DNA of 64,000 nt from Escherichia coli (GTDB taxonomy: Bacteria > Pseudomonadota > Gammaproteobacteria > Enterobacterales > Enterobacteriaceae): the NCBI RefSeq assembly GCF_048403405.1, contig NZ_CP183129.1; one strand, 5' to 3'. The first letter of the stretch is position 1. Each line of letters begins with the position of its first letter. Positions 48,821 through 49,573 of the stretch are shown one piece after another. The translations under genes and the position numbers were made by a program. The notes beneath the pieces are model-generated. The model was not told the origin of the DNA. It made no database searches and saw only the letters and a program-made list of their open reading frames with translations.

Positions 48821-49573
48821 ATGGCCGTACTGGGATTGCAGGGGGTGCGGGGAGGCGTGGGGACAACAACCATCACCGCCGCATTAGCCTGGTCATTACA
48901 AATGTTGGGAGAAAATGTCCTGGTGGTCGATGCCTGCCCGGACAACTTGTTGCGCCTGTCATTTAACGTTGATTTTACCCACCGTCAGGGCTGGGCCAGA
49001 GCTATGCTGGATGACCAGGACTGGCGTGACGCCGGGTTGCGCTATACCTCGCAGCTCGATTTGCTGCCTTTTGGTCAGTTATCCATTGAAGAACAAGAAA
49101 ATCCACAGCACTGGCAAACCCGGCTGAGCGATATTTGCTCCGGCTTACAGCAACTAAAAGCCAGCGGGCGTTACCAGTGGATTTTAATCGACTTACCGCG
49201 TGATTCCTCGCAGATAACCCACCAGCTGCTGAGTTTGTGCGATCACTCGCTGGCAATCGTCAATGTGGATGCCAACTGCCATATCCGGCTGCATCAGCAG
49301 GCGCTGCCGGATGGCGCGCATATTTTGATTAATGACTTCCGTATCGGCAGTCAAGTTCAGGACGATATTTACCAGCTTTGGTTGCAAAGCCAGCGCCGAT
49401 TACTGCCAATGCTCATTCATCGTGATGAAGCGATGGCTGAATGCCTGGCGGCTAAGCAACCAGTCGGTGAATATCGCAGTGATGCGCTGGCCGCTGAAGA
49501 GATACTGACGCTGGCTAACTGGTGCCTGTTGAACTATTCCGGGCTGAAAACGCCAGTCGGGAGTAAATCATGA
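48821..49573 (+). CDS. bcsQ: cellulose synthase operon protein BcsQ, ParA/MinD-like ATPase (250 aa), full length
   Basis: Uninterrupted 250-aa ORF; codon 6 (48836-48838) is TTG; deviant Walker A GVRGGVGTT. Confidence 0.9.
   Translation: MAVLGLQGVRGGVGTTTITAALAWSLQMLGENVLVVDACPDNLLRLSFNVDFTHRQGWARAMLDDQDWRDAGLRYTSQLDLLPFGQLSIEEQENPQHWQTRLSDICSGLQQLKASGRYQWILIDLPRDSSQITHQLLSLCDHSLAIVNVDANCHIRLHQQALPDGAHILINDFRIGSQVQDDIYQLWLQSQRRLLPMLIHRDEAMAECLAAKQPVGEYRSDALAAEEILTLANWCLLNYSGLKTPVGSKS

Follow-up and report, generated by a model that had tools for sequence, protein, structure and literature searches.

In the 64,000-nucleotide stretch of Escherichia coli DNA analyzed here (the window), the cellulose gene bcsQ is intact and carries the ancestral codon 6, whereas the gene next to it, bcsA, is frameshifted in the sequence as given; a working cellulose operon cannot be taken for granted from an open bcsQ. 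Our overall reading, which we hold to be rather likely, is that the window comes from a non-K-12 strain resembling MS 69-1, with the ancestral TTG in bcsQ and a real frameshift in bcsA that disables the bcs operon.

The intact bcsQ spans 250 codons in the open reading frame listing (48821-49573, plus strand) and encodes a MinD/ParA-like ATPase of the cellulose secretion system. Together with BcsR, BcsQ supports the c-di-GMP-activated BcsA-BcsB cellulose synthase; the ATP-dependent dimerisation of BcsQ with BcsR and the requirement of BcsQ in cellulose secretion are taken from the literature on a near-identical protein. The gene starts with ATG GCC GTA CTG GGA TTG CAG, and a codon-by-codon comparison with MG1655 (NC_000913.3), where bcsQ is annotated as a pseudogene, places TTG (Leu) at codon 6 (48836-48838, plus strand) opposite TAG in MG1655. 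Both the 250-codon frame with TTG at codon 6 and the K-12 TAG that the initial annotation had cited are thereby borne out. The nonsense mutation at codon 6 deprives K-12 of BcsQ and may also have polar effects on genes further downstream. The window protein matches the Pfam family CBP_BcsQ (PF06564; E=4.6e-114) with residues 1-236 on profile positions 1-234 of 234, with weaker matches to AAA_31, CbiA and ArsA_ATPase. Its residues 1-250 align to the solved E. coli BcsQ structures 6ybu_A and 6yar_A (E ~1e-167) with 3 substitutions. The gene also has the position expected of bcsQ, between bcsR and bcsA in the order bcsRQABZC and divergent from bcsEFG.

Codon 6 was then compared across complete genomes using 61-mers centred on the single-nucleotide difference, which differ between the window and MG1655 at that base alone. 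The exact TTG 61-mer is present in 3551 of 5247 matching complete-genome records, from unrelated pathotypes including O157:H7 and O103:H2, and the exact TAG 61-mer in 349 of 5244; the other records depart from the TTG 61-mer by one to three bases, and among them codon 6 was read for the 349 exact TAG matches. Among the matches listed for the TAG 61-mer, 60 of 60 are K-12 laboratory strains (MG1655, C600, J53, DH5alpha, DH1, NCM3722, HMS174 and others). This agrees with PMC5944007, which traces the TAG mutation back to the common ancestor of K-12 and, citing Serra et al. 2013, gives it as 17T>A, converting TTG to TAG, and states that repair of the codon-6 TAG gives back cellulose production in W3110. 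TTG at codon 6 is the ancestral, species-typical state, and the TAG allele is derived and, as far as was seen, confined to the K-12 laboratory lineage. Therefore, an open bcsQ in a non-K-12 strain almost certainly needs no special explanation. The K-12 nonsense allele and the wild-type TTG of natural isolates are already known and are textbook matter in the biofilm field; the window is an instance of the wild-type gene in a strain of commensal type.

The initial annotation had taken the open bcsQ as a sign of a "non-reference or repaired background". Non-reference is correct and even understated, since the strain is not K-12 at all, but repaired is not. Repair of the K-12 allele would leave a single-base difference from the K-12 gene, and the bcsQ of the window shows 19 nucleotide differences, affecting four codons (L6stop, D65G, S129A and K249A), so a repaired allele is excluded; outside codon 6, 18 nucleotide and three amino acid differences separate the two haplotypes. 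At the nucleotide level, the gene is 100% identical to the bcsQ of strain 042. The alignment to MG1655 that the initial annotation had proposed gave 97.4-98.2% identity across the shared 49 kb (blocks covering 14894-64000), far from the >99.9% identity by which K-12 lineage membership was judged. It contains ~1100 substitutions, a background divergence of ~2.5%, with bcsQ carrying TTG against TAG and with three LDR units against one; identity to K-12 at bcsQ was not seen. Among 5426 complete E. coli genomes, no K-12-derived genome matched the window at >99.9% over the 64 kb.

The closest relatives lie elsewhere. The best matches to positions 40000-64000 among the 5426 genomes were MS 69-1, TUM14771, 4621, GN02461, TUM1226 and OX030728, all at ~100%. 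When the whole window was aligned to the finished chromosome of MS 69-1 (NZ_CP146675.1), a Human Microbiome Project isolate from the human colon (BEI HM-347), the 64,002 alignment columns contained one substitution and two single-base gaps. The gaps are a G8 to G7 deletion in xylB (~15776-15782) and an A6 to A5 deletion in bcsA (49978-49982). The substitution, T in the window and G in MS 69-1 at 43409, is the only one in 64 kb and is intergenic; it precedes the first LDR unit and lies ~130 bp upstream of where yhjV starts. MS 69-1 also shares the IS150 and three-LDR layout and the annotation order of the window. With near-identity over the window and the same layout, the source is a natural, non-K-12 E. 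coli belonging to the same clone as MS 69-1. As a separate observation, two tandem RtT RNA elements (35363-35664) follow the tRNA-Pro gene (35252-35325) in the window and likewise in 042 and MS 69-1; the MG1655 annotation of the stretch matching 35363-35664 lists proK only.

Could the window nevertheless come from a bcsQ-repaired K-12 derivative, for example of the AR3110 type, or from a close phylogroup-A relative of K-12? Such an origin would agree with a TTG at codon 6 set in 61 bases otherwise the same as in K-12, and with an IS150 at the hokA locus. However, it would have to accommodate the ~1100 substitutions over 49 kb, the 18 further differences inside bcsQ, three LDR units where K-12 has one, and an IS150 that differs from that of K-12 in orientation and junctions. 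Given also the near-identity of the window to MS 69-1, we give this origin practically no credence; the whole-window alignment already refutes derivation from K-12.

The initial annotation had further used the number of LDR copies and the IS150 as clues to the background, and neither serves this purpose. The three LDR copies themselves are present as described: three tandem units with a 483-bp period (43545-44827) form a repeat family in which each unit pairs a plus-strand ldr toxin open reading frame with a minus-strand rdlD antisense RNA. The three Ldr frames of 35 aa lie at 43754-43861, 44237-44344 and 44720-44827, and the three rdlD RNAs, assigned by Rfam, at 43640-43705, 44123-44188 and 44606-44671. 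The number of units at this locus is one in MG1655, two in Ch1 (a genome that we return to below), three in the window and in MS 69-1, and five in 042. LDR copy number here is simply strain-variable and is no K-12 marker.

As for IS150, the element was described as sitting at hokA as in K-12, which is right for the locus but not for the orientation or the junctions. In the window, the 1443-bp IS150 (21825-23267, plus strand) is inserted in the hokA leader with an AAG target duplication, upstream of the 50-aa hokA toxin frame (23343-23495, plus strand; from its translation and the MS 69-1 annotation). With the empty hokA site of strain E686 as a reference, this insertion is canonical: AAG is duplicated and the leader is otherwise intact, with its 41 bp kept. 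The K-12 IS150, by contrast, is reversed, lacks a duplication and replaces ~40 bp of the leader, and its sequence differs from that of the window element by 9 mismatches. The window-type junction is found in 1131 of 5426 complete genomes, and the K-12-type junction in 1667 of 5426, including non-K-12 strains. Both arrangements are widespread, and neither is a K-12 marker. Two further features were seen at this site. The lineage of the window has one extra A at the left IS150 junction, common to only 8 genomes. A full-length match to the Rfam sok model (RF01794; 83 bits) at 21747-21901 spans the junction between flank and IS150 and takes in ~77 nt of the IS150 end, which suggests that the family model includes insertion-sequence DNA.

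The bcs genes flank and follow bcsQ in the expected arrangement. Upstream on the plus strand is bcsR (48621-48809; 62 aa, intact), whose coordinates were transferred from the MS 69-1 annotation, the window being identical there. Downstream, also on the plus strand, bcsA is followed by bcsB (52198-54537; intact, inside an 808-aa open reading frame), bcsZ (54544-55650; 368 aa, intact) and bcsC (55632-59105; 1157 aa, intact). The divergent genes on the minus strand are bcsE (46778-48349; 523 aa), bcsF (46590-46781; 63 aa) and bcsG (44914-46593; 559 aa), all intact and matching the MS 69-1 annotation. BcsC serves glucan export, and BcsEFG serve phosphoethanolamine addition; the docking site of BcsG is the BcsA N-terminal domain. 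All components of a type II cellulose secretion system (bcsR, Q, A, B, Z, C, E, F and G) are thus present, and the genes other than bcsA are identical to those of MS 69-1. The exception in the sequence as given is bcsA, which lacks the intact 872-aa frame. The functional operon that the initial annotation had implied does not hold for this sequence, as the very next gene after bcsQ carries a -1 frameshift.

The frameshift lies in a run of five A residues (49978-49982, plus strand) that is A6 in MS 69-1, 042, K-12 and nearly all genomes, and it takes effect after codon 138. The native sequence DEKKELGHLSA becomes DEKKSSAI followed by a stop. According to the open reading frame listing and the MS 69-1 alignment, the 5' fragment (49570-49998, plus strand), whose start overlaps the end of bcsQ, consists of 138 native codons, the residues SSAI and the stop, giving 142 aa. 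The 3' fragment (49995-52187, plus strand) is in a different frame and comprises 730 codons from the native Leu143 (TTG). The 142-aa fragment has no Pfam domain, and the 730-codon fragment, identical to the BcsA tail of MS 69-1, has the Pfam domains Glycos_transf_2, Cellulose_synt and PilZ, that is, the GT2 catalytic and PilZ domains. The N-terminal domain of enterobacterial BcsA has ~140 residues (1-149 in a published chimera) and recruits BcsG (PMC11379886). In the window, the 142-aa piece is the counterpart of this domain, and the break falls where the domain meets the catalytic core.

Within the lineage of the window, the A5 deletion is private. It was absent from the six closest complete genomes, which have A6 and an 872-aa BcsA. 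It was likewise absent from all 26 contigs read that share the BcsB allele of the window: BcsA is 872 aa long in 25 of them and is broken differently in the other; BcsB was used as the lineage probe because the 730-aa BcsA fragment is identical between lineages and so uninformative. A 181-mer across the A5 site was found identically in one of 5318 matching complete genomes, that of the chicken isolate Ch1 (NZ_CP127316.1). The same A6 to A5 deletion with the identical 142-aa product is inherited and fixed in a Ch1-like lineage made up of Ch1 and at least 17 other contigs (L005-L012 and L033-L042), including contigs without any other indel. This lineage is distinct from that of the window, being separated from it by ~36 substitutions per 6.4 kb and ~98% identical to it over 11-20 kb (contigs ~98-99.4% identical), and Ch1 itself is ~1.3-1.7% divergent from the window. 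Ch1 carries a bcsA frameshift, a bcsB internal stop, a bcsZ frameshift and an xylB frameshift. In 3194000-3243000 of its chromosome, a region of 49 kb, bcsA, bcsB, bcsZ and xylB are the sole pseudogenes. Public contigs related to Ch1 show further bcs lesions, such as a BcsQ split into 119 + 102 aa. From these sequences, the Ch1-like lineage looks like a natural lineage with a decaying cellulose operon.

The second single-base gap against MS 69-1 leaves xylB (xylulokinase; 14523-15875, plus strand) with 450 aa instead of 484 aa through the G8 to G7 deletion in the G-run at ~15776-15782. Three independent samples from the lineage of the window (L023, L027 and L028) carry the G7 allele, with 0-1 mismatch over 9-17 kb, and it also occurs in 4 complete genomes of other lineages; same-lineage samples with G7 include GCA_040252855.1, SRR29466652 and SRR24492470. 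This distribution makes the G8 tract look like a recurrent slippage hotspot, and the strain may use xylose poorly. Because the G7 allele recurs in three independent same-lineage samples, the source of the window is a distinct isolate, not an error-laden copy of MS 69-1. Exact look-ups of the 142-aa BcsA fragment and the 450-aa XylB gave no contig in the lineage of the window with both products.

On balance, we think that the bcsA deletion is probably a real one and not an assembly error. Sequencing platforms are expected to make homopolymer errors in the longest runs first. The window contains 67 homopolymer runs of at least 6 bases, only 2 of which differ from MS 69-1, and its 20 A/T runs of 7-8 bases all agree with MS 69-1; this concordance counts for a real deletion. 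In addition, loss-of-function frameshifts in bcsA occur naturally in human-associated E. coli and can be selected (PMC10881479). The opposing view is that the same MS 69-1-like strain, with its wild-type bcsQ, has a true A6 and functional bcsRQABZC and bcsEFG, the A5 being an error of sequencing or assembly. A one-base deletion in a homopolymer is the classic error signature of 454, Ion Torrent or nanopore data. A6 and the 872-aa BcsA are found in the finished MS 69-1 and in five further complete genomes that are nearly identical to it, the A5 split occurs in none of the 26 contigs sharing the BcsB allele, and additional homopolymer indels make several public assemblies that carry this 142-aa fragment visibly noisy. 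Against it stand the small number of discordant runs, one of which (xylB) was verified in independent samples, the concordance of all 20 longer A/T runs, and the fact that the identical deletion is a genuine inherited allele in the Ch1-like lineage. We therefore regard an error at this site as a possibility to be taken seriously, though not as the probable case.

Two broader versions of the error explanation were also considered. First, both indels against MS 69-1 might be homopolymer errors, for example those of an old 454 draft. This is weakened by the xylB G7 in three samples, by the concordant A/T runs and by the inheritance of A5 elsewhere. Second, the xylB and bcsA deletions of Ch1 might be systematic errors at these sites. 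This was rejected as the main explanation, given that the Ch1 pseudogenes are three bcs genes, one of them with an internal stop, and xylB, in a genome ~1.3-1.7% divergent from the window.

If the A5 deletion is real, as we favour, it would split BcsA after codon 138 into the 142-aa N-terminal fragment and the 730-codon catalytic remainder. No full-length BcsA would be made, little or no pEtN-cellulose is predicted, and the strain is probably cellulose-negative. Cellulose would then be lost through a lesion of the catalytic subunit rather than of bcsQ, that is, by a route different from that of K-12. Transcriptional slippage or programmed frameshifting would probably not restore the frame, as a run of A5 is too short.

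A real frameshift might also be leaky. Translation would stop at TGA (49996-49998) and restart at TTG (49995-49997), the native Leu143 codon, giving a separate N-terminal domain and a core devoid of it, like the Rhodobacter BcsA, with cellulose reduced or free of pEtN. The break lies where the enterobacterial N-terminal domain of ~140 residues gives way to the conserved core, and the isolated domain is able to bind BcsG (PMC11379886). Moreover, the 730-aa fragment keeps all GT2 and PilZ domains, and the candidate start shares bases with the stop in the sequence TTGA. But TTG is a weak start, no good Shine-Dalgarno sequence was seen by eye 5-10 nt upstream, and the Ch1-like lineage with the same deletion gathered further bcs lesions, as expected of an already dead operon. 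We consider restart very unlikely. Equally speculative is the idea that the A6 run at bcsA codons 137-138 is a recurrent slippage site, perhaps a reversible switch that would turn pEtN-cellulose off or uncouple the N-terminal domain from a restart-translated core; we see only a slim chance of this. Under a switch, the -1 allele would have arisen independently in at least two lineages, and the amount or modification of cellulose would be altered without the gene being simply destroyed, an outcome that we find just as improbable. We thus keep to a plain loss of BcsA as the preferred consequence of a real deletion.

What follows for the use of this genome depends on the A5 run. A real deletion would add one more case to the independent cellulose-loss mutations documented in human-associated E. 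coli, some with links to changed virulence and inflammation, and would make the isolate unsuitable as a cellulose-positive reference. Should A5 be an assembly artefact, the operon would be an ordinary wild-type one. The biology is known in both cases.

Compared with known systems, the bcsQ of the window is like the wild-type E. coli gene of 042, MS 69-1 and 1094 and of the structures 6yar and 6ybu, both in its 250 aa and in the order bcsR-bcsQ-bcsA-bcsB-bcsZ-bcsC with divergent bcsEFG. Relative to the K-12-derived BcsQ sequence, it has few and conservative residue differences (D65G, S129A and K249A). The K-12 pseudogene is the same gene at the same position, with the flanking 60 bases identical, and the window differs from it by TTG in place of TAG and by the 18 other nucleotides. 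The bcsA allele has its own counterparts. Loss-of-function frameshifts in bcsA are found in ST95 clade 8, where a G is deleted at nt 556, and in Shigella and other ExPEC clones (PMC10881479). In both the window and ST95 clade 8, a single-base deletion in bcsA sits in an otherwise complete bcs locus of a human-associated E. coli; a frameshift of this kind abolishes cellulose, and its correction in MS7163 restores it (PMC10881479). The sites differ, as the window deletion is in the A-run at codons 137-138, not at nt 556, and is private to one sequence in its lineage. The bcsA allele of the Ch1-like lineage is the identical deletion, but that lineage has further bcs lesions, whereas the other bcs genes of the window are intact.
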